UHGV virus genome: UHGV-0123923
From: a virus
Strand: one strand, 5' to 3'
Length of the DNA: 40,997 bases
Below are positions 2,017 through 32,981 of the stretch, one piece after another. The position numbers and the translations under genes were made by a program. The stretch's first letter is position 1. Each line of letters starts with the position of its first letter. The notes below the pieces were generated by a model. The model worked only from the letters and a program-made list of their open reading frames with translations. It did no database searches and had not been told where the DNA came from.

Positions 2017-2154
2017 CTACTCTTCTGATAACTTCTCCAGTACAAACGCCAGTTGCGCATTAGCGGCGTCTCTCTGCTGCCGTAGCCGTAGAACTTCCTC
2101 CTCAAGTTCCTTGATACGTTTTTGCAATGCCGGAGTCGGGGCCATGATGTTCAT
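2017..2154 (-). CDS. small coiled-coil protein (45 aa), below the ORF-track length cutoff
   Basis: ATG overlaps helicase stop (ATGA); translation MNIMAPTPALQKRIKELEEEVLRLRQQRDAANAQLAFVLEKLSEE; heptad-like charged pattern. Confidence 0.3.
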   Translation of the reverse strand: MNIMAPTPALQKRIKELEEEVLRLRQQRDAANAQLAFVLEKLSEE

Positions 2155-3575
2155 TTCTTACCTCGTCTCTTCATGTAATTAAGCAACTCTTCCTGGACCG
2201 ATTTCTTCTCGTCAGTACGCGAGGCAACAACCTCGTCCAGCGTGTCTTTAGCAACGATGTGATAGATGAACACTGGTCGCTCGTGGCCCGCCTGCTTCTG
2301 GCGCACCGGGCCTATACGCTCGACAACCTGCAAATAGTGCTCAAGGTTCCAGCCTTGCGAAATAAACGCCAGATGATGTCCGCCGTCCTGTAAATTCAAG
2401 CCATGGCCGGCTGACGCGGGGTGCACGCATAGGATTTCGATTTCGCCACGGTTCCACGCTTCCATCTGCTTATTACCCTTGGCACCTTTGGCGAACGCCT
2501 GCGCCTGCGGGAATCGCTTAAGGATGCGCTCCAGTTCGTGCTTGAACTGATAGGCCACCAGTAACGGCGCGCCCTGTAACTCATCAACAATTGACTCCAG
2601 CGCATCCAGTTTCGTGTCGTGCACTTTCTCCCAGTCTTTGGTTGCTTCTCCGTCGTCACCCGTCACATACACGGCACCGGAAGCAATTTGCAAGCACTTT
2701 GACGTCTTTGCCGCCGCGTTAGCGGCTTCAACTTCTCCGCTCTCCAGTTCTGCGAATAACTTTTCCTCCATATCTATGTACGCCTGACGTGCTTTCTTCG
2801 GCAGGTCAATTTCAACAGGGACGATAATTGGCGCTTCGCAACCGAACCACTCAGCGGCGTCAATCGTGAGACTAATGTCCTTCATCTTCTGATGGATTTC
2901 ATTATCCGCACCAGGGCGCGCATGATACTCACGCGCCATCGCTGATTTGCCTTTCTGTACCGAGTTAAACCAGCGGTCGGTGAATGCTGTGTATGAAGAA
3001 CCGAGGCGCTCACCCGCGTCGATAAACCAGTTCTGGCCCCATAAGTCCTTGAGGCCGTTCGGCGACGGCGTACCAGTCAGGTTAATGAAACGCTTAACCT
3101 TACCGAACGCAACTTTACTTAGCGCCTTCGCCCTCTTGCTTCCACCTGAACGGCTGCGGAATGATTTCAGCTTCGTGCTTTCGTCGGCGACGATAACGGT
3201 AAAAGGCCAGTCGTCTTTGCCGTAGTAGTCAATCAGCCATTCGATAACTTCGTAGTTTGTACACACCACGTTAGCGTCTGATTCCAGCGCCGCGATGCGG
3301 CGCTTCTCTGAACCGGTTGCGTCAACGACACTCAGACAGGGAAAGTTCCATTTCTCTTGCTCTGCGGGCCACGTGCCAGACGCAACACGCAACGGGGCGA
3401 GGATTAACACGCGGTCGTCGTCATTAAGTTGCCCATTGCGGAACAGTCGGTTTAAAGCCCACAGGACACTGCCCGTCTTCCCGGCGCCCATGCTTGCCCA
3501 TATGTTGCAGCGATGGTGCCGCAACATGAACGAAGTCATGAGCTTCTGGTACTCGCGCCTTTGAAACTTACTCAT
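2151..3575 (-). CDS. SNF2/DEAD-like superfamily 2 helicase
   Basis: Walker A MGAGKTGS, DExx box VIVADEST, C-terminal helicase domain; 474 aa. Confidence 0.8.
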   Translation of the reverse strand: MSKFQRREYQKLMTSFMLRHHRCNIWASMGAGKTGSVLWALNRLFRNGQLNDDDRVLILAPLRVASGTWPAEQEKWNFPCLSVVDATGSEKRRIAALESDANVVCTNYEVIEWLIDYYGKDDWPFTVIVADESTKLKSFRSRSGGSKRAKALSKVAFGKVKRFINLTGTPSPNGLKDLWGQNWFIDAGERLGSSYTAFTDRWFNSVQKGKSAMAREYHARPGADNEIHQKMKDISLTIDAAEWFGCEAPIIVPVEIDLPKKARQAYIDMEEKLFAELESGEVEAANAAAKTSKCLQIASGAVYVTGDDGEATKDWEKVHDTKLDALESIVDELQGAPLLVAYQFKHELERILKRFPQAQAFAKGAKGNKQMEAWNRGEIEILCVHPASAGHGLNLQDGGHHLAFISQGWNLEHYLQVVERIGPVRQKQAGHERPVFIYHIVAKDTLDEVVASRTDEKKSVQEELLNYMKRRGKK

Positions 3576-3763
3576 TTCAGCACCAGAACTAACTCTTTAC
3601 GCCCGAACGCCGTAACGTTACCAGTTACATCTTCGATAACCAGTTTACCGTTCGACTCGACGAACACCGTATCAACGGCAACAGGCTGGCGTGTCTTAAC
3701 GTTGAAAATCATGTCACCCGGTACGATGTCACGTGCTGGTTTGCGGTCATATTCGTGTTTCAT
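3572..3763 (-). CDS. hypothetical protein (63 aa)
   Basis: AAGGA RBS; stop overlaps helicase start. Confidence 0.5.
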   Translation of the reverse strand: MKHEYDRKPARDIVPGDMIFNVKTRQPVAVDTVFVESNGKLVIEDVTGNVTAFGRKELVLVLK

Positions 3764-3793
3764 TTCTCAATTCCTTATATTGTTGGTGTAGGA

Positions 3794-4081
3794 CTAACTA
3801 TAATAGTTCGCTATTAGGTCGTCAACCTGTTTAAACGAACCAACGACAAAAACATTCGCACCACGTTTACGCATCCGCTCATGTTCCCGTAGCTGGTGCG
3901 GGTCTGGCTTCGTGTTCTCGTCTTTCTTAACCTCGACGAACCAGACTATGCCGCCGGGGATAATTACCAGCAGGTCGGGGGCGCCCGCTCTATTTTCGTA
4001 CGACAATTTGCGTACGAGGCCTCCCAGGGCCTCGAATCGCTCTTTTGCGTATTCCTGCACGCGCCCCTCAGGCGTACTCAT
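3794..4081 (-). CDS. VRR-NUC domain nuclease
   Basis: 95 aa; GGGAGGGG RBS; motifs PDLLVI...VEVK consistent with a PD-(D/E)XK VRR-NUC fold. Confidence 0.7.
   Translation of the reverse strand: MSTPEGRVQEYAKERFEALGGLVRKLSYENRAGAPDLLVIIPGGIVWFVEVKKDENTKPDPHQLREHERMRKRGANVFVVGSFKQVDDLIANYYS
3797..3825 (-). promoter_or_regulatory. sigma70-like promoter (TTGACG-N17-TATAGT) with operator motif, embedded in the 3' end of the VRR-NUC gene
   Basis: minus-strand -35 is the reverse complement of 3820..3825, -10 of 3797..3802; AATAG(3802..3806)-N4-CTATT(3811..3815) palindrome in the spacer. Confidence 0.45.
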
Positions 4082-4174: not shown

Positions 4175-4294
4175 CTACAGATAAATTGCGATGAACATGC
4201 TCAATATGGCAACCATCATGCCGTATTGACCCTCGTGACAGTAGACACCGGCAGCAAATCCCGCCAGTACCGCGATAATCAGTTTACTTGGCAT
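4175..4294 (-). CDS. possible small hydrophobic membrane protein (39 aa)
   Basis: ATG overlaps the DNA polymerase 3' end in another frame; MPSKLIIAVLAGFAAGVYCHEGQYGMMVAILSMFIAIYL; no clear RBS. Confidence 0.25.
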   Translation of the reverse strand: MPSKLIIAVLAGFAAGVYCHEGQYGMMVAILSMFIAIYL

Positions 4295-6464
4295 AACGCT
4301 TCATCTCCGCGCCTTCTGCTACAAGAGGGAACCCCTCGGCCCACTCTGGTAATTCGCACATCAATCGTTCCAGTTCTGCGACATTGTATTCTGGTAAATC
4401 TGGTGTCTCGCAGATAATCTCATCGTGAACATGAAGCACAATCGGGTAGCCGTTTGCTTCGACGTTCAGCAGTGCATTAGCCAACAAATCACGGCACAGC
4501 GCCTGAGTGCAGTTTTCCACCAGTTTACCAGAGTAGGTGTACTGGAAGCCCCACTGACGGGTTAACTGGTTTTCGCCCTGGTACTTGATGCGCACGTTGG
4601 TAGACACCTTCCCGTCTTCGTCTGTCTCTTTCGACACGCTTAACCCGACGCCAGGGTATGACATAACTCGACCAGACGGCAACGTCATACGCAACCACCA
4701 ACCGGCGACTTTGTTGCCGTTGTTGTCCGTTTCTACGTTGCGCGAAAACTTAACTCCCCGCGGCCCTGCGGTGAACTCTTTGCCCGGATTGCGGATAGCT
4801 GCCATAGCTGCGTCTTCAATATCCCGCCAGAAAGCTACTGTTTCCGGGTGTGACTCACGCCACATACGCTTGATAGCGTCGCAGGTACGCCACACTTTCT
4901 TATCAAGAATATAAGATGGTCGGTCATCATTTTCACCTGGACGTGGTGGTCGCTTGGCTTCCTGAATACGCGCCCACTCATATCCACGTGCGGTAGCAGC
5001 CCAGATGTGGTCGGGGAAAGTCCCGTCCATTGTTTTTGCCATATCAACAAGGTCAAGGCCGAGGTTCTTGGCGAACTGTACGAATGCGCCGACACCACCC
5101 GCGTAGCCAAGTCCAAGTTCGCATGCCTTACCAATCTGGCGTAAGTCTTTACGTTCTTTCTTAATGTAATCCGGCTCCATGCCGAACATCTTGCCTGCGG
5201 TTACGCAGTAAATATCCAGCCCGGCACGGAACGTATCAAGCGCGGTTTCTTCGCCAGCCAGCCACGCCAAACCGCGGCCTTCAACGTTCGAGTAGTCGGC
5301 GACGACAAACTTATACCCGGCTTCCGGGATAATGCAGCTGCGAACCGTAGATGCCGTTAGCTTGGCTACATCAAAACGGCGATGTGCTCGGCCCTTAAGT
5401 AATGCTGAAATACCTTTATCCAGTTCATCATCGTGATAGTACCCACGCGCCAGGTTCTGCGGCTGGAAGCCTTTACCCGCAAATCGTAACGTACGTTTAG
5501 CTCCACCATACTGGATGCAACCGCGACGGCGGTCGTCAGACGAGCGGCCTAACAGCAGCGGGTTATATTTCGTTGACGCAGTGGATGCCGCCCCGAGGCG
5601 CATTTCTATAATCGTGCGGGCGTCGTCCGGTAAATCATCGTCAGCAAGCAGGTCGTTAAGCGTAGACTTCTGCGCGTTGTGGATGCGATGCGCAGGCGCC
5701 AGTTCACGCAGAATCGGCAGGAAGTCCTTACCTGTAAGCGAGCCGCCGTATTTACGTTGGGCTTCTTCCTGTAACTGTGCCTTGTGTTTCTCCACAGCTT
5801 CAATTGCGGCTTCCGCCAGCGCAACGTCGACCTTAAACCCGCGGTCGTTAATTAACTGGTCCAGTTCCAGTACACGGTCTTCGAACTCGGAGTTACCCCA
5901 ACGCGGCAACTTATGGAACACTTCACGCATCGCGGTGATGTCGCTAACGGCGTACTTGATGAACAGCGCCCACTCATCCGGGTGCGTTTCAGCAGTGTAG
6001 CGGCGAATTTTGTAGTTCTTCGGCGTCGGTTTAGAGAAACGCTGAATAAGCGCTTTGCCTCGTTTGTCTTTCGCGTTGTCTGCAGACACGCCAAGCACTT
6101 CGCACAATGCGTCGAGTGAACCCGGCAGCGCGTGACGAAACGCCCAAATCATCGTATCAATGGTGTTGCTTACGGGAATATCAAAACCCCAGCAGTGCTT
6201 CATGATGAGTCTGTCGAACATTGAGCCGTTGTGCCACACCATCTTAATACGGCTGTTTGGTTTCACCAGACGGCGTAACGCGCGGTGCAAATCACCCGGC
6301 ATGTCGCTGCCGTTGGTGCAATCCCATACCTGCACAGGCTCGTCGTCAAAAGCATATGTGCAGATTAGAACTTCGGTGGTTGGATGTTCGGCGTAAGCGT
6401 AGGAGCCGACTTTCTTCAAATCGGCTTCTGAGAATGTTTCAAAGTCTAAGAACAGGTAACTCAT
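4284..6464 (-). CDS. family A DNA polymerase with N-terminal 3'-5' exonuclease domain
   Basis: 726 aa; exo motif FLDFETFS; polymerase motifs DYSNVEGRGLAWLAGE (A), RQIGKACELGLGYAGG (B), VLHVHDEIICE (C). Confidence 0.9.
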   Translation of the reverse strand: MSYLFLDFETFSEADLKKVGSYAYAEHPTTEVLICTYAFDDEPVQVWDCTNGSDMPGDLHRALRRLVKPNSRIKMVWHNGSMFDRLIMKHCWGFDIPVSNTIDTMIWAFRHALPGSLDALCEVLGVSADNAKDKRGKALIQRFSKPTPKNYKIRRYTAETHPDEWALFIKYAVSDITAMREVFHKLPRWGNSEFEDRVLELDQLINDRGFKVDVALAEAAIEAVEKHKAQLQEEAQRKYGGSLTGKDFLPILRELAPAHRIHNAQKSTLNDLLADDDLPDDARTIIEMRLGAASTASTKYNPLLLGRSSDDRRRGCIQYGGAKRTLRFAGKGFQPQNLARGYYHDDELDKGISALLKGRAHRRFDVAKLTASTVRSCIIPEAGYKFVVADYSNVEGRGLAWLAGEETALDTFRAGLDIYCVTAGKMFGMEPDYIKKERKDLRQIGKACELGLGYAGGVGAFVQFAKNLGLDLVDMAKTMDGTFPDHIWAATARGYEWARIQEAKRPPRPGENDDRPSYILDKKVWRTCDAIKRMWRESHPETVAFWRDIEDAAMAAIRNPGKEFTAGPRGVKFSRNVETDNNGNKVAGWWLRMTLPSGRVMSYPGVGLSVSKETDEDGKVSTNVRIKYQGENQLTRQWGFQYTYSGKLVENCTQALCRDLLANALLNVEANGYPIVLHVHDEIICETPDLPEYNVAELERLMCELPEWAEGFPLVAEGAEMKRYAK

Positions 6465-6523: not shown

Positions 6524-7150
6524 TTAGCGACGACGACGCTCGCGGCGCGGTGCTTCATCTTCTTCGTCGTCTTCCAGGTCATTTACGCTGGCAGCGACTT
6601 TAGAACCGCCAAACGCTTTGCCTTCGCCAATGTATTTAATCGCCAGCAGGTTAACGCCGAGGACTTTATATTTCTGACTGAACCAGATTTCAACGCTTAC
6701 GTTAGCGACGCAGCCGCTGTAAACCTGTTCACCTTCAATCTGTTCGCCGTCTACATTGAAGTCCTGTTCTACCTGAGTCTCGCCTTTTTTAGAGGTTACA
6801 ATCAGTGGCTGTTTCTGTGCCTTCGCCTTGAAGTAGAAGCCTTCCGGGAAGTCTTCAAACGGATTGTCGCGCTCGGCAATGTCTTTAATCGCACATTTAT
6901 CCATGTGCTTACCTTCGCCGTAGTTGGACTTCATCCACTTCTCAGCGGCAGCTGCGCCCAACGCTTCTTCAACCACAGCGTAAACGGTGTCGTAGAGCGC
7001 GTCGATTTGTGCGTGGTCAGACGGCAGGATGATAGTCGCGCTGTACTGGCCTTTAGTGATTGAGCCATCATCGTTTTCACGGTCTTTTTCGCGTTCGAAT
7101 ACGTTAACCCATGCAGTGTTTACTTTACGCAGATTCAGTTTAATACCCAT
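6524..7150 (-). CDS. putative ssDNA-binding protein (DUF2815-like)
   Basis: 208 aa; acidic patch DLEDDEEDEAP near the C-terminus followed by an Arg-rich tail; position between exonuclease and polymerase; family assignment from memory. Confidence 0.45.
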   Translation of the reverse strand: MGIKLNLRKVNTAWVNVFEREKDRENDDGSITKGQYSATIILPSDHAQIDALYDTVYAVVEEALGAAAAEKWMKSNYGEGKHMDKCAIKDIAERDNPFEDFPEGFYFKAKAQKQPLIVTSKKGETQVEQDFNVDGEQIEGEQVYSGCVANVSVEIWFSQKYKVLGVNLLAIKYIGEGKAFGGSKVAASVNDLEDDEEDEAPRRERRRR

Positions 7151-7203: not shown

Positions 7204-7232
7204 ACTATAATAGCTAACTATTCGGGTGTCAA
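7204..7232 (-). promoter_or_regulatory. sigma70-like promoter (TTGACA-N17-TATAGT) with operator motif
   Basis: -35 is the reverse complement of 7227..7232, -10 of 7204..7209; AATAG(7209..7213)-CTAA-CTATT(7218..7222). Confidence 0.45.
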
Positions 7233-7236
7233 CACT

Positions 7237-8490
7237 TTATTCCAAATCTTCTTCACTAACCTGATTCCACTCAGGACGTTTGTCGTCTGCCGTTGCGACA
7301 CATGGTGCGCCTGGCTTACGGGTAATAAACGGCTCAAGCGCTGCCATCTCATCCGCCGAAAGAACTTTTGCTGCCTCCGTAGGGGTCATCAATACCTCTT
7401 TTTTGAGAATGTCGCCGTGTGACACTTCAATCGCATCGGCATCTTTCCACGCACGGTTGCCCATCTTACCTTCAACCAGCTTGTACCCAGGAACTTTCTT
7501 ACCGGAATGCAATGCGGCGGTCATCGCTTTCTCAACCTTGTCGATGTGCTGGCGTAACAGCGGCAACTTCTCATACTCAACTACGAGTTGCTCCGTCGTC
7601 AGTTCCAGCACAAAGTCGTCTTCAAGTTCTTCCGCCAGTACAGAATTAACCGTCTTTGTACGCGCGGCACACTGTTCAGAGAACCGGCACCACTGGCAAC
7701 CATCGACCGACGGTTTAAAGTCCGACGCTTTCAGGTTCTTCTTTCCACGGAAATAAGCATCAAGCGCTAACAGTGCCCGTTTCTGTGCGAACTTAGCGAA
7801 CAGTTCCAGACCTTCGACCGAGATGTCCCACTCTGACGCACCCCCCGCGTACGGCTGGAAGATGACCAGGCGCACTACTGTGATGTTATAACGTCTCTTG
7901 AGTCGGCGATAAACACCGAGAGCGTAAAGCATAAGCTGCTTGTTTTCTTTCGCTTCAACACGATGCCGTCCAGTTTTAAGGTCGCCAATAATGAGCATGT
8001 GCTCGTCGGTGTTCGCCAGTTCCTGGACAGCAACGAGGTCAGCCGTTCCGAACGTCTCGACACCTTCATACCCAGGATGCAATACCTCAGTAAGATTGAC
8101 TCGCATTTCCAGCTTGGCGTAAGTCGCTACGTCGATAATCGCTTTGCAGTAGTCGGTGTACTTGCGCACCTGCTCAATCATGTCCGCCGTAATCAGTACC
8201 GCGCCTTTCATTGGGCTGATTAGCGCCTTAATCTGGCCTTTACCTTCATCCAGCACGTAAGCGCCGACTTCACGCTCTAACGGCAGCGCAGCACCTTTGA
8301 TGTACTGGTTAAGATGCATCTCGGCTATGGTGTGCATAGCTGTGCCTAATACCGCGGCTTTACCGGACGTGTTAGGAATATCTTTTTCACAGGCCAGAGA
8401 AGCCGGGCAGGTTAGCCACTTTTTAGCGCCTGACGGTGATAGTAAGGCGTGTACATCGTTATTGCCGCCGCGCTCTTTTAGAATCATCAT
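7237..8490 (-). CDS. Cas4/RecB-like PD-(D/E)XK exonuclease with Fe-S cluster cysteines
   Basis: 417 aa; GGAGGG RBS; N-terminal Cys (LTCPASLAC), core IIGDLKTG, C-terminal C-x2-C-x5-C (CQWCRFSEQC). Confidence 0.7.
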   Translation of the reverse strand: MMILKERGGNNDVHALLSPSGAKKWLTCPASLACEKDIPNTSGKAAVLGTAMHTIAEMHLNQYIKGAALPLEREVGAYVLDEGKGQIKALISPMKGAVLITADMIEQVRKYTDYCKAIIDVATYAKLEMRVNLTEVLHPGYEGVETFGTADLVAVQELANTDEHMLIIGDLKTGRHRVEAKENKQLMLYALGVYRRLKRRYNITVVRLVIFQPYAGGASEWDISVEGLELFAKFAQKRALLALDAYFRGKKNLKASDFKPSVDGCQWCRFSEQCAARTKTVNSVLAEELEDDFVLELTTEQLVVEYEKLPLLRQHIDKVEKAMTAALHSGKKVPGYKLVEGKMGNRAWKDADAIEVSHGDILKKEVLMTPTEAAKVLSADEMAALEPFITRKPGAPCVATADDKRPEWNQVSEEDLE

Positions 8491-8744
8491 TTAGTGCCCT
8501 CCGGCAGTTCCGGTAAATACATCCAGTGAGTTATGCCCATCTCGATATACCGTTTCGTATATAGCTGATTTCCGTTCTCATCCAGCCCAGCCGTAATGTC
8601 GTCGAAATAGTCCTGTATATGTACAAAATCGATCCCACCTTCCGGGAACCCGTTATCGTCATATTTACCACCATCTACTGAGCAAACTAAAACAGAATCA
8701 TCTTTTGACTCCGGCAATGCTTCGTTTACACTAACCCAATTCAT
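8487..8744 (-). CDS. DUF551-like protein
   Basis: start moved to the ATG (MNWVSVNEALP) behind a GGGAGAA RBS; C-terminal THWMYLPELPE motif; paralog at 14096..14296. Confidence 0.5.
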   Translation of the reverse strand: MNWVSVNEALPESKDDSVLVCSVDGGKYDDNGFPEGGIDFVHIQDYFDDITAGLDENGNQLYTKRYIEMGITHWMYLPELPEGTK

Positions 8745-9013
8745 ACCCTGTTCTCCCACTGGTCAATTAAATGTCGCGTCTTATGGTCGCAATGCATAAC
8801 CCAACCATACATCGACTCGAAGACATAAAAGTCAGGTTTTGCGAAAGTCGTGCGCTTAATCTGCGACACGTGGCGGTCTATATCTTTAGGCCGTGGTACT
8901 TTGCCTAAGTACGCCATCTCTTCCATCTGGTGTGCCCCGGACGGCGCACGCAATAACCATAGCGCATCTGTGTTATCCCGCCTGTCCACGGCGCGGTAGA
9001 GTTGGTAAATCAT
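8741..9013 (-). CDS. hypothetical protein (90 aa)
   Basis: GAGGGT RBS; stop overlaps next start (ATGA). Confidence 0.5.
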   Translation of the reverse strand: MIYQLYRAVDRRDNTDALWLLRAPSGAHQMEEMAYLGKVPRPKDIDRHVSQIKRTTFAKPDFYVFESMYGWVMHCDHKTRHLIDQWENRV

Positions 9014-9608: not shown

Positions 9609-9637
9609 AACTATAATAGCGAACTATTCACTTGTCA
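9609..9637 (-). promoter_or_regulatory. sigma70-like promoter (TTGACA-N17-TATAGT) with operator motif
   Basis: -35 is the reverse complement of 9632..9637, -10 of 9609..9614; AATAG(9614..9618)-CGAA-CTATT(9623..9627). Confidence 0.5.
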
Positions 9638-9641
9638 ATGG

Positions 9642-9934: not shown

Positions 9935-10129
9935 TTGCACCTTTATCGGGTATCTTTTGCGAAACTTACCTAACCCGCAGTATACGCTGTAAGCCTCTGT
10001 GTAACTGTACACAACATGATACCCGCGCCCGTAAGGAACTACGTTAAGAACTTCCACTACTTCGCCTCTGTGGTTGGTGTATTTATTACCTTTAAGTTCG
10101 TCACTTACTTCTTTAAATTTACCGCTCAT
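9932..10129 (-). CDS. hypothetical protein (65 aa)
   Basis: start overlaps primase stop; no recognisable motif. Confidence 0.4.
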   Translation of the reverse strand: MSGKFKEVSDELKGNKYTNHRGEVVEVLNVVPYGRGYHVVYSYTEAYSVYCGLGKFRKRYPIKVQ

Positions 10130-12393
10130 TCCAAATCCTCCTCTGTCACTGTCAGCATCTCATTCGGTTCATATATTGTCTTCGGAATCTTGTTATCAGT
10201 TATCCGGGTGTTCAGCCTGTAACGGCCAGGGATTATCTGATTGTTTTCGTCAGTCCCCGGAACAAGATACCCAGCCTCAACCATTTTCTTAATCTTCCCG
10301 CGTTCTATGGCTTCTTTGGAGTTAAACGCCTTTGCATTGGGGTCAGACTGTGCGAGCTTATTAGCGGCGGCGACTGTGATGCCTTCGTTGCCGTTGTAGG
10401 TTCCTTCCGCCAGTTCAAACGCCGCCAGTATCGTGGCTTCTGAACTGTTGACGGCGTTCTCTATGGTTTTACGTACGTTTTCTTTACCTTCTTTCGTCAA
10501 CCCTTCTTCCCGCTCTTTCTCCTCGTCAGTCTTGAACGGCTCGAAACCCCACGGCATTAACACAAGTGCCTTATGCGGCTCCGGCAGGTCGAGGTTTACG
10601 ATTGTGCCGTATTCCTCCGTGCTACCGAGGAACTCAACCGCACGGTACTCTTTCGGCGGCGGCGCTTCACGGAACTGTACCGACTCCAGCACCATGCCAA
10701 CCGTCTTCTGTTGCGGCCCGTGCTTAAATTTCGAGTGGTATACATTTATCTGACGGTCGGTAGCTCGTTCGATTGTCAGTTCCACGTCGACGCCAGCATA
10801 CAGCGCCCCACTGCCGCGGGCTTTCTTTCCGCCCTTCGGCGTATGGTGGACAACGCCTACCGCAGCTTTAGTCGCGTCACGTACTTCTTTCAGGATGGCG
10901 ATAACCTTACCCATGCCGATTGCCGTTGATGAACTGTTCTCGTCGAACTTATCAATCGTCAGGGCTAGCGTCTGGTTGAGGGTGTCGAACGCAACCATGC
11001 CGATGGGTTCGTCACCCGCAGTTTCACGCATCAACTTAATCAGGCTTTTCAGTTTTCCGACTTCGCCCATGTCGATGACATGTACATAATCTTTACCTTC
11101 CTCGCCATATTTAGCCGCGAGCGCATCGATACGGGTGCGTGTAGCTGCGCCGCCCTCACCGTCGATATAGAAATGGTGGCAACGCTGGGTGTCAGCACCC
11201 GCAAACCGGTATCCGGCGGCGCTCAGGTACATCATCCCCAGCGTATAGAAGGATTTATACGTACCGGACTCCCCGACGATATCCCATATGCAATCCGACG
11301 GCATGTACCCTTCAACGACGAAATCAGCCTTTACCGGTTCCGGTAACTCGTCCTCCTCTGAGTCCTCGTCGTCTTCAAGGTCGTCCAGGCTGCAAGAAAC
11401 AGATTCACGTGCACCCCATCCGATGGCCTCTGCGACTTCACTGAACGGCAGCCCCGTCGCATCGCACGCATACTTCCACACCTCTTTCGGTGACATGCCT
11501 TCGGTCGCCGTAATGTCAGTGTCGTGAATCATGGTTACGTTCGGCGCCTCATATCCCTCTCGCGGGAAGCACAGCAGGAAGTCATCCGGGCGCGGCGTCG
11601 GGTCGCTGTAGTTTTCTGCGTGTTCTGGCGTAGCTGGCATCTTAAGGCCTCGTGGCGTCATGATACCGCCATACTCGAACGCCAGTGCCTCGAACGCGTC
11701 GGTAAACGCGGTGCGCAGTTCTTCCGGTATCTGGTAATCCGATGCGCTGCTAACGTCAACGGCGGGGATGCCTTCCAGTAACTCGTCCGGGTCAATCAGG
11801 TCGTTGCGGCGTGACCAGATAACGGTAGAGCCAACCGGAGGCAGGTACATCGGTTGCGAAAGAGTGAACCCGCTGCGGTCAGCACCCATGCTTTTGAAGA
11901 AGTGTTCCAGCAATCCATGGCGAACACGGATGATGTCACCACCTTCGACCGGACGGGCCAGCGGCATGACGACGCGAAAGCGCGGGGCCTCGTCGGTATG
12001 TGATGCCGTGGTATAGATACACATGCCCCGGCGGCTGCGTTTAACTAAGCGCACCGCTTCCTGATACTCTTCTGGTGTTGCGCTGTCGAAGTCCAGATAC
12101 GCCAGCGACGATTTGCTTACAGACGCGTCACAGCGATAGAAAAAGCCTTTACGCGCTTGCTTAAAGTCGCCGGTTTCCGGGTCTTTTACAGTGCTGTGCG
12201 TCGAGTCGCACGCGGCGGTGATATAACCGGGCGCGGTCTTCGGGTTAATTCCGTCACGGACAGCATCGAGTGGCTGGATTAACTCTTTCAGGTCGTCCAG
12301 TGTTGCCGTGTGTGTGGTTCTGACGTTTATATCCTTTTTCTCAGCCCGCGCGTTGCGACGCGACCACGAGTAGGATAAAATTACATCGGACAT
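10126..12393 (-). CDS. primase-polymerase (AEP-like) fused to a RecA-like ATPase (primase/helicase)
   Basis: 755 aa; GAAGGAAAT RBS; N-terminal LAYLDFD and SHTDE motifs; C-terminal Walker A GESGTYKS in a DnaB/RepA-like ATPase domain. Confidence 0.7.
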   Translation of the reverse strand: MSDVILSYSWSRRNARAEKKDINVRTTHTATLDDLKELIQPLDAVRDGINPKTAPGYITAACDSTHSTVKDPETGDFKQARKGFFYRCDASVSKSSLAYLDFDSATPEEYQEAVRLVKRSRRGMCIYTTASHTDEAPRFRVVMPLARPVEGGDIIRVRHGLLEHFFKSMGADRSGFTLSQPMYLPPVGSTVIWSRRNDLIDPDELLEGIPAVDVSSASDYQIPEELRTAFTDAFEALAFEYGGIMTPRGLKMPATPEHAENYSDPTPRPDDFLLCFPREGYEAPNVTMIHDTDITATEGMSPKEVWKYACDATGLPFSEVAEAIGWGARESVSCSLDDLEDDEDSEEDELPEPVKADFVVEGYMPSDCIWDIVGESGTYKSFYTLGMMYLSAAGYRFAGADTQRCHHFYIDGEGGAATRTRIDALAAKYGEEGKDYVHVIDMGEVGKLKSLIKLMRETAGDEPIGMVAFDTLNQTLALTIDKFDENSSSTAIGMGKVIAILKEVRDATKAAVGVVHHTPKGGKKARGSGALYAGVDVELTIERATDRQINVYHSKFKHGPQQKTVGMVLESVQFREAPPPKEYRAVEFLGSTEEYGTIVNLDLPEPHKALVLMPWGFEPFKTDEEKEREEGLTKEGKENVRKTIENAVNSSEATILAAFELAEGTYNGNEGITVAAANKLAQSDPNAKAFNSKEAIERGKIKKMVEAGYLVPGTDENNQIIPGRYRLNTRITDNKIPKTIYEPNEMLTVTEEDLE

Positions 12394-25798: not shown

Positions 25799-26767
25799 AT
25801 GTCTCTGTCAGATATGAAGGTTTATAACGACGATATCGTCGGTACCACTATCGAACTGCTTGGCCAGAAAACTGACCAGTTTAACGCAGCCTCCGGTGGC
25901 GCAATTGTACTGTCTACCGCTTCATGGCGCGGTGACTTCTCCCGTGAGTCTTTCTTTAACCAGATTGCCTCCGCTAAACGCCGCGTTGACCGTTACGCCG
26001 CTATCGCGTCTCAGGCAGCTACCGCGCTGACTCAGGGCGAGCGTGTAGGCGTTAAAGTCGCTGGCGGCTTCGGACCGGTACTGTTCGAGCCTGCGCAAAT
26101 GACCTGGCTGAACGAAGACCCGGCGAGCGCGATTCGTGCTATCTCCGAAGGGTTCTCTGACGCACTGTTAGCTGACCAGCTTAACACCGCTGTTGGTGCC
26201 GCCGTTGCCGCGGTATCAGGTCAGGCTGCACTGGTTAACGATGTATCCGCGACCGCTGGCTTGTCCCTGAACGTGCTGAACAACAGCCACGCTAAATTCG
26301 GCGACCAGTCTCAGTTGTTGGTCACTGACATCATGACCGGCGCGGCATACCACACTCTGGTGGACAAAGCGCTGACCAACGCAAACCAGTTGTTCGTTGC
26401 TGGCAACGTTATGGTTGTCGATGTTCTCGGCAAGCGTTACGTAATTTCCGACATCCCTGCGCTGTACGAAGCTGGCACCCCGAACAAGACTAAGGTTCTG
26501 TCCGTAGTTGCGAACGGCATCATCGTTGATAATGCTTCTGATATTATCAGCAACATTGACACCAGCAACGGTAACACCCGCATCCAGACCACCTGGCAGG
26601 CGGACTACAGCTTCGGCCTGAAACTGAAAGGCTACAGCTGGGACGTTACCAACGGCGGTAAATCTCCGCTGGACGCAGAACTGTTCACCGCGACTAACTG
26701 GGACAAAGCTGTTGCCGAGAACAAGCACACCCTCGGTACTCTGGCAATCGCCGACGCAGACCTGTAA
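25799..26767 (+). CDS. major capsid protein
   Basis: 322 aa after the scaffold; GAGGATAA RBS; strong terminator immediately downstream. Confidence 0.75.
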   Translation: MSLSDMKVYNDDIVGTTIELLGQKTDQFNAASGGAIVLSTASWRGDFSRESFFNQIASAKRRVDRYAAIASQAATALTQGERVGVKVAGGFGPVLFEPAQMTWLNEDPASAIRAISEGFSDALLADQLNTAVGAAVAAVSGQAALVNDVSATAGLSLNVLNNSHAKFGDQSQLLVTDIMTGAAYHTLVDKALTNANQLFVAGNVMVVDVLGKRYVISDIPALYEAGTPNKTKVLSVVANGIIVDNASDIISNIDTSNGNTRIQTTWQADYSFGLKLKGYSWDVTNGGKSPLDAELFTATNWDKAVAENKHTLGTLAIADADL

Positions 26768-26789
26768 CACGGTTAGTAGTAAAAACAAA

Positions 26790-26810
26790 GGGGCTTCGGC
26801 CCCTTTTTAC
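26790..26810 (+). terminator. intrinsic terminator after the major capsid gene
   Basis: GGGGC-TTCG-GCCCC followed by TTTTTAC. Confidence 0.7.
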
Positions 26811-26824
26811 TAGGAGAAATTAAA

Positions 26825-26992
26825 GTGGAAATTAAATACGTACCAATGCCAATTACCATCGAGCAGAAGCGCGAGTATAACCGTCAGGGGTTCCGTGTGG
26901 TAGATGCTCGTTTCGCACCAGAAGGCACCGTGGTAGAATCGGCTAAAGAAGAGACACCACGCCGCCAGCGCCGGGCGAAATCAGAGGAATAA
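26825..26992 (+). CDS. hypothetical small protein (55 aa), GTG start
   Basis: TAGGAGA RBS 7 nt before GTG; translation VEIKYVPMPITIEQKREYNRQGFRVVDARFAPEGTVVESAKEETPRRQRRAKSEE. Confidence 0.35.
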   Translation: MEIKYVPMPITIEQKREYNRQGFRVVDARFAPEGTVVESAKEETPRRQRRAKSEE

Positions 26993-26995
26993 TTT

Positions 26996-27508
26996 ATGCC
27001 GCTAATCGTGGAAGATGGGTCGATAGTACCTGATGCCGACAGTTACGTTAGTCTGGCCGACGCCCGCGCGTTAGCGGCTAATTACGGTCTTGTGTTGCCG
27101 GCAGACGATACCGCCGCAGAGGTGGCCCTGCGCAACGGTGCTACTTATGTTGGGCTTGCAGAACCTCAGATGTGCGGGCGTCGCGTATCCGCTGAACAGT
27201 CTCTGGCGTACCCACGTACAGGAACAACACTAAACGGCTTCACCGTAGCGGATAATGTTATCCCGTCGCAGATAATCCGGGCACAAGTAATCGCTGCTGT
27301 TACGTATGGTGCGGGTACTGATGTTCGGGCTAACTCAGATGGGCGTTCCGTGCAGACTGAGCGTGTTGAGGGTGCTGTGACAGTGACATACTTCAACAAC
27401 GGCAACAGTGGCGCCACAACCGCTATTACCGCTGCGGACGACGCATTACGCCCGTTACTGTGTGGTGGTCTTAACAATGGCTTCTCGTTTAACGTGTACC
27501 GGGGTTAA
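26996..27508 (+). CDS. head-tail connector/adaptor protein candidate
   Basis: GAGGAATAA RBS; position after the capsid gene; N-terminal MPLIVEDGSIVPDADSYVSLADA resembles gp6-like connector proteins (from memory). Confidence 0.45.
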   Translation: MPLIVEDGSIVPDADSYVSLADARALAANYGLVLPADDTAAEVALRNGATYVGLAEPQMCGRRVSAEQSLAYPRTGTTLNGFTVADNVIPSQIIRAQVIAAVTYGAGTDVRANSDGRSVQTERVEGAVTVTYFNNGNSGATTAITAADDALRPLLCGGLNNGFSFNVYRG

Positions 27509-30581: not shown

Positions 30582-31136
30582 TTACAAACCTAATTTTAAA
30601 GCAATGTCTACAACGTTCGATTTAACGTCACCCGGTATGATGTATGTGTCGTAATCTTTTACACCGCTAACATCATACAGATACTCCCTGCTATCGCCGA
30701 TGAACGTATAGCCGTCTCGGTGCAAGCGAACGATTCTTACATCATGACCTGCGGCGACGATAGGGGCTACTTCGCTGGCGAACCCGCCATCCGACACTAC
30801 AAAAACGTCATCGCCGTCGGGCAAGTTTTCAGCAAGATACTTACCGAAATAATCGCTGCCGAGAACCGGTTTAATGAATTGCTCAGATATAGCAATCATG
30901 AACTGACGCCGCGACAAGCCATTAAGGAAGCCTTCTGGCTTTTCTTTCCGCGCCCGGTCGTCGTAGCCGTCGAGAAACTCGTGGTAAGCATCCGGGCCTA
31001 ACGCCGCCAGAGCGATATTGAACATTGGATTCTTGAAACTGGTAGTTCCTTTCGCAAAGCCCATTTCTACCAGCGCCATAGCAAGTGTGTCTTTCCCACA
31101 ACCCGCCGGGCCATTAAGAATAATTACCTTAGCCAT
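30582..31136 (-). CDS. P-loop kinase, dNMP-kinase-like (GKDT Walker A)
   Basis: 184 aa; ILNGPAGCGKDT resembles the T4 gp1-type dNMP kinase P-loop (from memory); start overlaps the upstream stop (TAATG). Confidence 0.55.
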   Translation of the reverse strand: MAKVIILNGPAGCGKDTLAMALVEMGFAKGTTSFKNPMFNIALAALGPDAYHEFLDGYDDRARKEKPEGFLNGLSRRQFMIAISEQFIKPVLGSDYFGKYLAENLPDGDDVFVVSDGGFASEVAPIVAAGHDVRIVRLHRDGYTFIGDSREYLYDVSGVKDYDTYIIPGDVKSNVVDIALKLGL

Positions 31137-31624
31137 TATTTATCGCTCCCGTGTGATTTTAAGTGTGTAGAGTTCCCGTTACAGTCGTATTCAGTAACCG
31201 CGTGGGTGGTTATACCGAGTCCGCGGAAATGCTTTATTACCGCTGGAGAGTCGTCGAATGCGCACAAGATTCTCTCCAGCCCAATAGCACGCAACACCTC
31301 TTCTTTAATTACGATGTCTTTTCTGATGTCGTGTTTGCTGCGCATTAACAGAACGTCGAACTTGACATTGTTTTTACGTAACCACTCACGAGTTTCTTCC
31401 TCGGCGTCGTCGCTTCGCCCGGTAAGGATGATTATGGTAATCCCGGTATGCCACAGCGTGTTGCACAAGTGAATGTTGTCATATATCGGCGCATCATCTT
31501 TGCACGCCATGTTAAAAGGCTTCCACGCCCATGTTTCGTTGTAGTTATCTTTCGGCAGCAGGTGTAAACGATGTGTACCATCCGCCAATGTTCCATCTAA
31601 ATCGAAAATCACAATATCTTTCAT
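31136..31624 (-). CDS. HAD-family phosphatase, polynucleotide-kinase 3'-phosphatase-like
   Basis: 162 aa; catalytic FDLDGTL, then TGR and DIRKDIVIKEE...AFDD motifs in the order I recall for the T4 Pnk phosphatase domain. Confidence 0.55.
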   Translation of the reverse strand: MKDIVIFDLDGTLADGTHRLHLLPKDNYNETWAWKPFNMACKDDAPIYDNIHLCNTLWHTGITIIILTGRSDDAEEETREWLRKNNVKFDVLLMRSKHDIRKDIVIKEEVLRAIGLERILCAFDDSPAVIKHFRGLGITTHAVTEYDCNGNSTHLKSHGSDK

Positions 31625-32751
31625 CCCAGCATCTCCGGTGAAATAGTTAAACGTGCGACCTCGCCATATTCGGCGCTATAAGTAATTACATTTGCACTAC
31701 GGCCTGACATCCATCCGCCGCGAGAGGCATATGCATCTTTAGCCGCTAGGGTGCGGTGTTGCTCAACAATCATGTTACGGCTTTCTACAATCTTCTGATG
31801 GTGCAGGTGGCCTACGTGAGCGTAACTGTAAACGCTCTCGCCGAACGCTTTACGGAACTTGGCAATCATAACCGGTTCGATAGCGTCGAATCGCGCCTTA
31901 TGCCCGTGGTGAAAGAACAACGTAGTTTTGCCGTGTTGGACCATCTTGTAAACATCCGGCGACGTATCGACGAACACACGAGGCTCATTGTCGTACAGCG
32001 TACTGAACATCTCAGCTAACCAAATCATTCCGCTTTCGTCATGGTTCCCTTGCACAATAAGCAAGCGAACATTTTTATGCTTAACCAGCGCCATATCAAT
32101 AACACGGCGGACCATACGAATCATGTAGCGTACAAGTTTCTGATAGCGCGTGTCGGCGTCAAGAACATGACCGCTTGCGGGTGTAACTGCATCCAGACTA
32201 TCGAAGTGAGCGAGGTCGCCCAGCAGATTAATAACTCCTGTTCCTGCATCCGGAGCTTTCTGGAACGCAGCATCGAACCACCGAGAGAACAGGTCTTCTG
32301 CAATCTTCATATCCCAGTCGTCGCCGCTCTCGTCGGCCCAGGCCAGCATACCGAGATGGAAATCAGATACCGTGTAAAGATTGAGTAGCTTGTCGTCACG
32401 TTTGTCCCGTGCAGGTTTAACAGGTGCAACTGGCGTAATCTCTGACTTCATGCCTTCGATTACGGCTTTCATCAACTCGACCTGACGTTCTGCATCGGTG
32501 TCGGTCTTAACCCATTGCAGTTTAGTGTTGCCAAACTCATCAACCAGTGACGACGTTCCTTTAATCTTGTAGCCATCCGGCACAAGGTGACTAACGTCAC
32601 GCCCGTGACCTACGCCTTTCTTTGCCAATTTCGCTTTACGGATACGAATTACGCGGTCTGAGATGCCGTATTTACGGGCGATGTCTACATTCTTCATCCC
32701 GGCGTTCAATTCTTCCTGTAACTGTTCGTCGGTTATTTTCTTCTGGGCCAT
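31621..32751 (-). CDS. calcineurin-like metallophosphoesterase with N-terminal HTH domain
   Basis: start moved to ATG (MAQKKITDEQ) behind GAGGAAG; metallophosphatase motifs DFH, GDLAH, GNHDE, HHGH, GHLHH; HTH-like N-terminus KNVDIARKYGISDRVIRIRKAKL. Confidence 0.6.
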   Translation of the reverse strand: MAQKKITDEQLQEELNAGMKNVDIARKYGISDRVIRIRKAKLAKKGVGHGRDVSHLVPDGYKIKGTSSLVDEFGNTKLQWVKTDTDAERQVELMKAVIEGMKSEITPVAPVKPARDKRDDKLLNLYTVSDFHLGMLAWADESGDDWDMKIAEDLFSRWFDAAFQKAPDAGTGVINLLGDLAHFDSLDAVTPASGHVLDADTRYQKLVRYMIRMVRRVIDMALVKHKNVRLLIVQGNHDESGMIWLAEMFSTLYDNEPRVFVDTSPDVYKMVQHGKTTLFFHHGHKARFDAIEPVMIAKFRKAFGESVYSYAHVGHLHHQKIVESRNMIVEQHRTLAAKDAYASRGGWMSGRSANVITYSAEYGEVARLTISPEMLG

Positions 32752-32789
32752 GCTTACTTCCTCGTGTTTAGGATTTGTCTTATAGTAGC

Positions 32790-32981
32790 CTACTTCTCTT
32801 TCACGTTCGAGTTGCAAGCCCAGATTAAAATAAATACCCACGGCAGCAGAACCCAACCAAGAAACAGATTAGCCATGAATATTGCCAACTTCGCTTTATG
32901 GTTACGGAAGTACGCAACCAGGAAAGGCGCGAAATAAGCGAGCAGCGCAAACAGAATTAAAGAAACCGGTAAACTGGACAT
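32790..32981 (-). CDS. small two-TM membrane protein resembling superinfection immunity (T4 Imm-like) proteins
   Basis: start at second ATG behind AAGGGG; PFLVAYFRNHKAKLAIFMANLFLGWVLLPWVFILIWA matches the pattern I recall for the Imm_superinfect family. Confidence 0.45.
   Translation of the reverse strand: MSSLPVSLILFALLAYFAPFLVAYFRNHKAKLAIFMANLFLGWVLLPWVFILIWACNSNVKEK

Follow-up and report, generated by a model that had tools for sequence, protein, structure and literature searches.

The locus and its genes

The window, a stretch of 40,997 nucleotides of viral DNA (UHGV-0123923), is the genome of a Kagunavirus, a K1G-like E. coli siphophage of the lytic type. We analysed the 417-amino-acid reading frame that the initial annotation had described as a Cas4-like Fe-S exonuclease, and found it exactly as called, at 7237–8490 on the minus strand with an ATG start (Table 1). 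This ATG overlaps the stop codon of the DUF551 gene (ATGA, 8487–8490), and a GGAGGG sequence lies a few bases upstream. The protein belongs to the DUF2800 family: it matched PF10926 over residues 14–406, covering the complete model (1–368 of 368), scoring 230.2 bits where the cut-off is 21 (E 5.7e-68), and the nuclease half and the C-terminal half each matched PF10926 separately in the Pfam scan. The match to PF12705 (PDDEXK_1) was likewise above cut-off (residues 17–274, 43.9 bits, E 3.5e-11), and phrog_69, ‘exonuclease’, was matched with E 3.7e-122. A search of NCBIfam gave zero matches, a search of the PDB with the single sequence gave one chance match and nothing else, and a word-indexed homologue search returned solely proteins at least 96% identical. 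An identical protein has already been deposited for phage vB_EcoS_fTaEco03, under the label "putative nuclease". The gene is an ordinary, already catalogued DUF2800 phage nuclease, a relative of AddB, AdnA and Cas4, in a well-sequenced phage genus, and its module was already known.

Table 1. Features of the nuclease locus and its surroundings (positions in the window)
Feature	Position	Strand	Basis or details
DUF2800-family nuclease gene	7237..8490	minus	ATG start; 417 aa + stop; ORF list, PF10926, PF12705, phrog_69
RecB-like PD-(D/E)XK nuclease domain, residues about 14–280	7651..8451	minus	PDDEXK_1, AF2, Foldseek
Catalytic motifs	7924..8040	minus	D151 8038–8040; D170-L-K172 7975–7983; Q185-x3-Y189 7924–7938
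Cys28 codon, N-terminal ligand of putative Fe-S ‘iron staple’	8407..8409	minus	invariant, 146/146
C265-x2-C268-x5-C274 (CQWCRFSEQC), three C-terminal putative cluster ligands	7669..7698	minus	conservation, alignment
DUF2800-specific conserved C-terminal domain, residues about 292–406	7273..7617	minus	DUF2800 HMM E 2.7e-16 alone
Acidic C-terminal tail (…PEWNQVSEEDLE), proposed replisome-docking peptide	7240..7272	minus	shared ending, co-variation
Gp2.5-like (DUF2815, Enc34-type) ssDNA-binding/annealing protein, nuclease partner	6524..7150	minus	PF10991 E 5.8e-16; phrog_112 E 1.2e-41
Family A DNA polymerase (PolA), 3'-5' exonuclease domain	4284..6464	minus	PF00476, PF01612, phrog_17
VRR-NUC nuclease, annotated Holliday junction resolvase, module end	3794..4081	minus	phrog_93, phrog_5702; PF08774 weak
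DUF551 gene	8487..8759	minus	stop overlaps nuclease start codon (ATGA)
Replicative primase-helicase, C-terminus …TVTEEDLE	10126..12393	minus	phrog_3228 E 1.4e-288
Sigma-70-like promoter with embedded inverted repeat, nuclease/SSB gap	7204..7232	minus	TTGACA-17-TATAGT, 11/12
Promoter copy, likely start of unit hyp173, hyp90, DUF551, DUF2800	9610..9638	minus	promoter match, K1G conservation

The order of nuclease, SSB-like protein and PolA on one strand (minus, 8490 to 4284) was correct in the initial annotation, and so was its placement of the gene in a replication/recombination module. Gene context elsewhere was read from GenBank phage records located by tblastn. Of the 22 further phage loci examined, which come from many genera, 20 have the order DUF2800, Gp2.5-like, PolA; the loci with the conserved order belong to phages of Proteobacteria, Firmicutes, Actinobacteria and Bacteroidetes. 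Two weak tblastn matches, Manatee Spring phage and Bcep781 (the latter covering the N-terminal part only), keep the CxxCx5C motif and lack an annotated Gp2.5-like or polymerase gene beside the nuclease. The combination DUF2800-Gp2.5-PolA has been named as a module (PMC8093625); it has been on record since 2010–2021 and is common to over a thousand phages.

The absence of a RecT/Erf-type annealase, which had been pointed out earlier, is real: neither PF03837 nor PF04404 was found in the replication-module proteins, in the other unassigned ORFs or in the K1G annotation. It is nevertheless misleading, because the adjoining "SSB" is itself a Gp2.5-family single-strand annealing protein (PF10991 and phrog_112, the latter labelled ‘Gp2.5-like ssDNA binding protein and ssDNA annealing protein’), so that a pair of nuclease and annealase is present. 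Gp2.5-like genes were detected through their linkage to this ‘RecE-like’ type of exonuclease (Lopes 2010), and the member from Staphylococcus phage phi12 anneals in vivo (PMC2896510; Lopes 2010). As in lambda Exo/Beta, RecE/RecT and T7 gp6/gp2.5, the nuclease gene thus adjoins that of a single-strand annealing protein within the replication module, and the annealase here is a member of the T7 gp2.5 superfamily; T7 gp6, however, is a FEN-type nuclease, whereas the protein here is of the PD-(D/E)XK type.

The four genes from 9578 down to 7237 run in tandem on the minus strand. Three of them abut or overlap, with a 43-bp gap after the first. Three near-identical promoter copies occur in the window, a number reached in 0 of 100 shuffles, and they are kept at the same places in K1G. 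One of them lies in the 86-bp gap between the nuclease and SSB genes. Cotranscription of nuclease, SSB-like and PolA genes, as proposed earlier, agrees with their common strand and with the lack of any terminator-like site between them on that strand; given the strong promoter match at 7232–7204, between nuclease and SSB, it is a possible reading of the locus and not the sole one.

The nuclease domain and a putative iron–sulphur cluster

Conservation was scored on 146 homologues from a representative library, at most ~50% identical to one another. H53, D151, D170, K172, Q185 and Y189 are invariant in all 146, and these residues (forming the motifs D151, D170-L-K172 and Q185-x3-Y189, besides H53) together with the PF12705 match uphold the PD-(D/E)XK core that had been proposed. 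The AF2 model of the nuclease (pLDDT 93.1, pTM 0.85) had AdnA, ACE1, MGME1, Dna2, AddB, RecE, Cas4 and EXO5 as its top Foldseek matches, with E from 7e-6 to 9e-4 for the Fe-S nucleases among them (AdnA, ACE1, Dna2, AddB, Cas4 and EXO5). RecE and lambda Exo were weaker fold matches and, unlike the protein here, are toroidal oligomers without the Fe-S cysteines.

Four cysteines are retained almost throughout the 146 homologues (C28 in 146, C265 in 144, C268 in 146 and C274 in 146), whereas the three further cysteines, C34, C115 and C397, are non-conserved. The arrangement described in the initial annotation, one N-terminal cysteine and a C-x2-C-x5-C triad, is therefore real, but the triad is not at the C-terminus: it closes the nuclease domain, and another 143 residues follow it. 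The best PDB matches of the DUF2800 family profile were AdnA (E 9e-5) and ACE1 (E 1.4e-3), with cysteines and DxK aligned. In this alignment Cys28 pairs with the cysteine of ‘LSPSTLQMLTDCP’ in AdnA, and CxxCx5C aligns with CANCPVRSSC (AdnA) and CRYCPFTSIC (ACE1); D170 aligns with D934 of AdnA, a position occupied by Ala in the mutant sequence of 6PPJ. With these cysteines aligned and Fe-S nucleases among the top Foldseek matches, the searches did not lead to an unrelated nuclease family.

In the crystal structure of ACE1 an Fe4S4 cluster is held by four conserved cysteines, and AdnA, AddB and ACE1 bind Fe4S4 through the corresponding residues (PMC12094033). By analogy, the four cysteines here most likely hold an Fe-S cluster, as in AdnA, AddB, ACE1, Cas4 and Dna2, although they may instead form a structural zinc site. 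We found no report of an Fe-S cluster in a DUF2800 protein in the literature searched.

Relation to Cas4 and other iron-staple nucleases

The closest solved relative is the nuclease domain of AdnA, from mycobacterial AdnAB (PDB 6PPU, 6PPR, 7SJR), which was best both by profile (E 9e-5) and by fold (E 7e-6); the LSPS…CP motif, the catalytic DLK and CxxCx5C all align. AdnA is an Fe4S4 ‘iron staple’ nuclease, and the strand that it cleaves is the 5' one, which is threaded along a channel (PMC12094033). Unlike the phage protein, it is fused to a UvrD-like motor and acts as a heterodimer with AdnB, whereas the nuclease here is stand-alone, carries a different C-terminal domain and shares only 15–18% sequence identity with it. 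The AddB nuclease domain, Dna2 and EXO5, Fe-S RecB-like processors of 5' ssDNA ends, match in fold (E 1e-4 to 8e-4) but are distant in sequence (no profile match at E≤1), and AddB and Dna2 belong to large helicase-nuclease machines. To the broad Cas4 family (ACE1, PDB 9IAB and 9IAC; Cas4, 8D3L; PF12705) the protein is alike in fold (E 3e-5 to ACE1, 3e-4 to type I-C Cas4) and in the arrangement of D-DxK and four cysteines; it differs in ~140 additional C-terminal residues, in its linkage to replication genes and in having no CRISPR or Argonaute association.

Cas4 proper (PF01930/COG1468, PF06023/Csa1) was considered and rejected, as the nuclease domain gave no profile match to it at E≤10; the Pfam scan at this threshold returned PF10926, PF12705 and a chance match to DUF6505 only. 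Among the three families proposed earlier for comparison, DUF2800 was matched with 230 bits, while Cas4 gave no Pfam match at E≤10 and AddB no profile match at E≤1. Since the closest solved relatives are iron-staple nucleases and the Cas4 Pfam model (PF01930) found no match, the label "Cas4/AddB-type Fe-S nuclease" given in the initial annotation holds at the level of the superfamily and not as Cas4 proper.

The initial annotation had also raised a link to CRISPR adaptation, in which the protein would act as a Cas4-like modulator, trimming prespacers and biasing spacer acquisition by Cas1-Cas2, as proposed for Campylobacter phages. The nuclease does fall within the broad iron-staple group, type I-C Cas4 is among its fold matches (E 3e-4), and it matches PF12705, the family in which the Cas4-like protein of Campylobacter phages was placed (PMC5704561). 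Hudaiberdiev et al. (2017), however, discarded proteins closer to another profile than to ‘Cas4-like’ PF12705, and the best match here is DUF2800 (230 bits for PF10926 versus 43.9 bits for PF12705). The scanned genes and the K1G annotation, which comprise genes for replication, lysis and structure, showed no cas1, cas2 or other cas gene and no CRISPR association, and the gene keeps its Gp2.5-like/PolA neighbourhood in phages of very different hosts from four phyla. The extra C-terminal domain and the replisome-like tail further argue against this function. We found no support for the link, and consider such a role highly improbable.

The C-terminal domain and an acidic tail ending like that of the primase-helicase

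Beyond the nuclease domain lie about 125 residues that Cas4, AddB and AdnA do not have. Residues 292–417 matched PF10926 model positions 251–368 and were modelled with a pLDDT of 92.9; G330, G335, K337, V339, G341, G344, R346, W348, D403 and R405 are near-invariant in this domain. Against the PDB it gave no significant sequence match (best E 0.04) and no fold match (best E 2.2), while its fold matches in BFVD were other phage DUF2800 or PD-(D/E)XK proteins. Also in BFVD, small stand-alone phage proteins and ‘Siphovirus Gp157’ (probability 0.54) were matched weakly.

The protein ends in an acidic tail, present in 123 of the 146 family members. Its last residues, …SEEDLE, resemble the …TEEDLE of the primase-helicase, and of the 269 long reading frames no other has this ending. 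Across phages, the nuclease tail resembles the SSB tail of its own phage (p about 8e-5 for 21 phages and about 0.04 for a 10-phage hold-out; the test did not include Manatee Spring phage or Bcep781). The co-variation is moderate, with JessA, TS6 and the VLCpiS11a SSB as misfits. As a copy of the primase-helicase tail that is also similar to the SSB tail, it probably recruits the nuclease to the site on the replisome where those proteins would dock. A wider and more tentative proposal, possible but rather doubtful as a whole, is that DUF2800 nucleases are tethered to the replisome in general, the C-terminal domain and SSB-like tail docking at a site on the phage polymerase (or in the SSB groove) shared with both the primase-helicase and the Gp2.5-like SSB.

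A homologue that triggers retron IX

The nuclease is 47% identical to its Dhillonvirus orthologue, whose numbering matches that of B14T (Bas14_0045 of phage Bas14); D177/K179 of B14T correspond to D170/K172 here. B14T triggers retron IX, and in vitro it cleaves the retron msDNA at the base of the stem-loop, an activity abolished by D177A/K179A (bioRxiv 10.64898/2026.07.14.737667). On msDNA it behaves as a structure-specific endonuclease, cutting at the ss/ds junction with the help of unpaired nucleotides, and escape mutants of Bas14 with truncated B14T are viable; iron and cysteines are unmentioned in the preprint (bioRxiv 10.64898/2026.07.14.737667). The viability of these mutants indicates that the nuclease is dispensable in the laboratory in the Bas14 lineage.

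Our protein shares with DUF2800 nucleases, including B14T, the length class, the invariant H, D, DxK and QxxxY, the four cysteines, the C-terminal domain and the gene neighbourhood. Two differences stand out. The Dhillonvirus protein has a basic low-complexity insertion of ~40 aa between the nuclease and C-terminal domains, unlike the protein here, and the C-terminal region of B14T is disordered according to the preprint, whereas residues 292–417 here were modelled as folded (pLDDT about 93).

T7 gp6, a functional analogue of the nuclease, degrades host DNA. It is thus conceivable that the protein serves host takeover, degrading host DNA for nucleotides, or anti-defence, destroying defence nucleic acids such as the retron msDNA that B14T cleaves. 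Cleavage of msDNA, however, activates the retron and does not defeat it; it looks like bait that the host exploits and not like the purpose of the enzyme, and the conserved linkage to annealase and polymerase favours a role on phage DNA. We regard this function as improbable.

A proposed role in recombination and replication

We consider it likely that the three-part nuclease (RecB-like domain, family-specific C-terminal domain and acidic tail) and the Gp2.5-like annealase form a two-component recombination system. The nuclease would take up a 5' end or flap in single-stranded form, thread it through an active site buried in the protein, and cut at DNA ends and ss/ds junctions, exposing 3' ssDNA. 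The Gp2.5-like protein would coat and then anneal the exposed strand, which PolA and the primase-helicase would extend, with recombination-dependent replication, concatemer formation and break repair being supported as the outcome. The logic would parallel that of T7 gp6 with gp2.5, or of lambda Exo with Beta.

A related reading places the main task at the fork, where the enzyme would clear Okazaki fragments of their RNA primers and 5' flaps in the manner of Dna2, FEN or T7 gp6, recombinogenic ends being secondary. In PolA, Pfam and PHROG profiles matched polymerase and 3'-5' exonuclease domains but no 5' nuclease domain, and neither the window nor the K1G annotation showed a gene for a 5' nuclease, FEN or RNase H. 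Cleavage by B14T at an ss/ds junction, helped by unpaired nucleotides, the presence of the flap- and end-processing enzymes Dna2 and MGME1 among the top fold matches, and the tail that the nuclease shares with primase-helicase and SSB all point in the same direction. On the other hand, host Pol I and RNase H could perform the task, Bas14 is viable with truncated B14T, and the tight linkage to an annealase is the classical signature of exonuclease-plus-annealase recombination. As the principal function we find fork maturation unlikely; it overlaps with the recombination role, and the two may be roles of one protein.

The near-invariant four-cysteine signature, for which an Fe-S cluster is unreported in the papers searched, bears on the purification and interpretation of DUF2800 proteins. 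As B14T triggers retron IX, Kagunaviruses, which carry an orthologue 47% identical, are predicted to be sensed by this retron. If the tethering proposal is true, processing of 5' flaps and ends would be coupled to fork progression, the nuclease would be a helicase-less phage counterpart of Dna2, and its tail would evolve in step with those of the other replisome proteins within each phage lineage. The shared tail, if the idea is true, would then offer an easy way into the question of how phage replisomes recruit accessory nucleases.

A DUF2800 family nuclease related to AdnA and ACE1

The initial annotation took the gene product for a Cas4-like Fe-S exonuclease. Its minus-strand reading frame (see table) was confirmed, with an ATG start and a product of 417 aa; the start codon overlaps the stop codon of the upstream DUF551 gene (ATGA, 8487-8490), and GGAGGG stands a few bases upstream of the ATG. 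In the replication region the window shares 98% identity with Escherichia phage K1G (genus Kagunavirus, subfamily Guernseyvirinae), whose counterpart gene, gp40, is annotated "exonuclease", and an identical protein is on deposit as "putative nuclease" of phage vB_EcoS_fTaEco03. In Pfam the protein matched PF10926 (DUF2800) over its full length (E 5.7e-68, 230 bits) and PF12705 (PDDEXK_1; E 3.5e-11), and in PHROGs it is phrog_69, "exonuclease"; an NCBIfam search gave no match. Homologues were detected by tblastn in 1,552 of 50,697 phage records. No Cas4 model was matched in the Pfam scan, even with the nuclease domain alone at E<=10. The label "Cas4-like" or "AddB-type" is thus right at the superfamily level, but misnames the family.

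To describe conservation, we aligned the protein with 145 of 150 representatives (146 sequences) taken from a homologue library (11,680 hits at E<=1e-3) clustered at 50% identity. H53, D151, D170, K172, G174, Q185 and Y189 are invariant, so that the proposed PD-(D/E)XK core (D…DxK…QxxxY) is borne out. Of the seven cysteines (28, 34, 115, 265, 268, 274 and 397), three never vary (C28, C268, C274), C265 is present in 144 of the 146 sequences, and C34, C115 and C397 are not conserved. The pattern Cys-(x236)-CxxCx5C is therefore conserved, but the triad is not C-terminal in the protein, as had been thought: it closes the nuclease domain (residues 265-274), and the C-terminus lies 143 residues beyond. 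This conservation indicates that both the core and the cysteine pattern are real hallmarks of the DUF2800 family.

The best PDB match of a family profile (101 members) was the nuclease domain of mycobacterial AdnA (E 9e-5), followed by ACE1, an Argonaute-associated Cas4-family enzyme (E 1.4e-3). The family motif "LSPS…W..CP" aligns with "LSPSTLQMLTDCP" of AdnA, the family DLK with AdnA DLK (ALK in the D934A mutant entry), and CxxCx5C with CANCPVRSSC of AdnA and CRYCPFTSIC of ACE1. From the profile alignment AlphaFold2 gave a confident model (pLDDT 93.1, pTM 0.85), and Foldseek matched it in the PDB to AdnA, ACE1, MGME1, Dna2, AddB, RecE, type I-C Cas4 and EXO5 (E 7e-6 to 9e-4), with lambda exonuclease ranking lower. 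In AdnA, AddB and ACE1 the corresponding four cysteines hold an Fe4S4 cluster, the "iron staple" (PMC12094033). Given these alignments, fold matches and clusters, the protein does not fall into an unrelated nuclease family lacking the Fe-S cysteines, and its own four cysteines are, judging from the homologues, probably clustered in space.

A July 2026 preprint reports that a homologue, B14T (Bas14_0045, the DUF2800 protein of Dhillonvirus Bas14), triggers retron type IX: the purified protein cuts the msDNA of this retron at the stem-loop base, a D177A/K179A double mutation abolishes cleavage and toxicity, and phages escaping retron IX carry missense or truncating B14T mutations (bioRxiv 10.64898/2026.07.14.737667). 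B14T is therefore dispensable in the laboratory. The preprint makes no mention of iron, cysteines or Gp2.5. A Dhillonvirus orthologue that we aligned is 47% identical to our protein and has D177 and K179 where ours has D170 and K172. A role of the nuclease in host takeover or anti-defence is unlikely, because cleavage of msDNA activates the retron.

The nuclease gene adjoins a single-strand annealing protein gene

Features of the window discussed in the text
Feature	Coordinates	Strand	Remark
Primase-helicase	10126-12393	-	
Hypothetical, 173 aa	9057-9578	-	
Hypothetical, 90 aa	8741-9013	-	
DUF551	8487-8759	-	
DUF2800 nuclease	7237-8490	-	
Gp2.5-like ssDNA-binding protein (SSB)	6524-7150	-	PF10991, Enc34 type; phrog_112 "ssDNA binding protein and ssDNA annealing protein"
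Family A polymerase with 3'-5' exonuclease	4284-6464	-	
VRR-NUC	3794-4081	-	
SF2 helicase	2151-3575	-	
Sigma-70-like promoter	9610-9638	-	upstream of 173-aa gene
Sigma-70-like promoter	7204-7232	-	in 86-bp nuclease-SSB gap
Sigma-70-like promoter	3797-3825	-	
HTH (Cro/cI-like) ORF, 71 aa	9703-9918	+	divergent from first promoter copy
Three-gene block among tail genes	30582-32856	-	on opposite strand to tail genes; DNA repair exonuclease (phrog_704, SbcD/Mre11-like), polynucleotide kinase, dNMP-kinase-like or ATP-binding protein
ORF, 182 aa	17758-18306	-	no PHROG match; may be spurious or an unannotated gene

RecT and Erf proteins were found neither among the window genes scanned nor in the K1G annotation, in line with the initial annotation, which nevertheless overlooked the adjoining Gp2.5-like annealase. 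The absence of RecT and Erf misses the point, because Gp2.5-like proteins are a recognised family of single-strand annealing proteins. It was the association with a "RecE-like" exonuclease gene, observed in 19 phages, that led to the discovery of Gp2.5-like recombinases, and the one from Staphylococcus phage phi12 anneals in vivo (Lopes et al. 2010, PMC2896510). We found a homologue of the nuclease directly upstream of the Gp2.5-like gene of Staphylococcus phage LH1. A "duf2800-gp2.5-polA module" was named explicitly in a 2021 paper (PMC8093625).

The order DUF2800, Gp2.5-like, PolA also occurs in 20 of 22 other phage loci inspected, their hosts being Escherichia, Salmonella, Klebsiella, Yersinia, Caulobacter, Ruegeria, Pseudoalteromonas, Achromobacter, Corynebacterium, Staphylococcus, Streptococcus, Paenibacillus, Brevibacillus, Bacteroides and gut Firmicutes. 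That replication synteny is kept in such different hosts, together with the lack of any Cas4 profile match and of a cas context among the genes scanned and in the K1G annotation, argues against the suggested Cas4-like role in CRISPR adaptation, which finds no support.

Distant homologues that keep CxxCx5C lie in other contexts in MW202879.1 (3977-5032) and phage Bcep781 (3938-5191); one adjoins a RepA-like primase-helicase, without a Gp2.5-like or polymerase gene, and the other an uncharacterised 235-aa protein and RusA. In K1G a DNA methyltransferase gene (26586-27410) stands between the SF2 helicase and VRR-NUC genes; only ~220 bp (3575-3794) separate these genes in the window, so the methyltransferase appears, by coordinates, to be absent. 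The three-gene block among the tail genes is a second DNA end-processing set of this phage.

Transcription of the module

A near-consensus sigma-70-type promoter, TTGACA-17-TATAGT, precedes the SSB gene, and near-identical copies occupy the two other sites listed, all of the form TTGAC(A/G)-N4-AATAG-N4-CTATTATAGT. As many copies were obtained in 0 of 100 shuffles. The sites are kept at the same three places in K1G; a search for this pattern did not find the three in one Dhillonvirus or phage TS6. An inverted repeat within the spacer and -10 region, AATAG-N4-CTATT, could serve as an operator. There are likely two transcription units, one starting from 9638 and ending with the nuclease, the other starting from 7232 and comprising SSB and polymerase. 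Cotranscription of the three genes, as initially proposed, is thus qualified by the internal promoter, although read-through is possible, since on the minus strand no terminator-like site lies between the nuclease gene and that of the SSB.

The C-terminal domain and acidic tail

Taken alone, residues 292-417 still match the DUF2800 HMM (E 2.7e-16), with G330, G335, K337, V339, G341, G344, R346, W348, D403 and R405 near-invariant. Whereas the preprint terms the C-terminal region of B14T disordered (bioRxiv 10.64898/2026.07.14.737667), the model of our nuclease gives this part a confident fold (pLDDT 92.9), by which it is not disordered; a basic, low-complexity insertion of ~40 aa ahead of the domain in the Dhillonvirus protein may explain the difference. 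The domain had no PDB match by sequence or by fold (best E 2.2). Its BFVD matches were to DUF2800 proteins from other phages and to a few small phage proteins that stand alone. The latter matches, over residues 292-406 (7273-7617), are weak, to proteins of 112-166 aa and 'Siphovirus Gp157', and suggest that the domain may also exist as a separate gene.

The nuclease ends in …QVSEEDLE (7240-7260) and the primase-helicase in …TVTEEDLE (10129-10149), sharing (T/S)EEDLE; among 269 long reading frames of the window only these two end in [DE][DE]DL. The SSB has …SVNDLEDDEEDE straight after its OB fold, and its C-terminus (6524-6600) carries NDLEDDEEDE. In related phages the tail of the nuclease varies along with that of the primase(-helicase) (ATDEDLSNE and ATDDDLKD in Dhillonvirus welsh, ASDEDLS and ASDEDLNS in Klebsiella phage VLCpiS11a, VTDDDLAN and SVEDDLEN in Salmonella phage TS6, DVDDLLG and SIEDLLG in Ruegeria phage V18, whose SSB ends in GDDDLLG), and all three tails change together in related and distant phages. 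The nuclease tail is closer to its own SSB tail than to those of other phages (n=21 phages; permutation p ~8e-5; p 0.0018 with one phage per lineage; p 0.04 in 10 phages added after the idea arose), and the last dodecamer is net acidic in 123 of 146 family representatives. The gp5 polymerase of T7 has sites that are bound by the acidic tail of gp2.5 and also by that of the gp4 primase-helicase. By analogy, and from sequence, we infer that the DUF2800 tail may dock the nuclease on the replisome, the tail effect being moderate. In the last SSB residues (6524-6547) the acidic tail is followed by an arginine-rich end, …DDEEDEAPRRERRRR, which SSB tails do not usually have; basic ends of this kind, or repeats alternating between acidic and basic, occur in Dhillonvirus welsh and phages TS6 and VLCpiS11a.

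We propose that the nuclease would act as a stand-alone iron-staple RecB-like enzyme, through whose buried active site 5' ends of single strands, or flaps, are threaded as in AdnA and ACE1. Held at the fork by its acidic tail, it would process DNA ends with the adjoining annealase and the replisome, serving single-strand annealing, recombination-dependent replication and repair. Removal of primers and flaps is a closely related alternative, or perhaps an additional role of this protein, consistent with a PolA in which no 5' nuclease domain was detected and with no FEN or RNase H gene being seen in the window or in the K1G annotation. Neither the gene nor the DUF2800 family nor the module is new, and a close homologue is characterised; only the C-terminal domain, which had no structural match, and the replisome-like tail that these proteins share may be worth more work.
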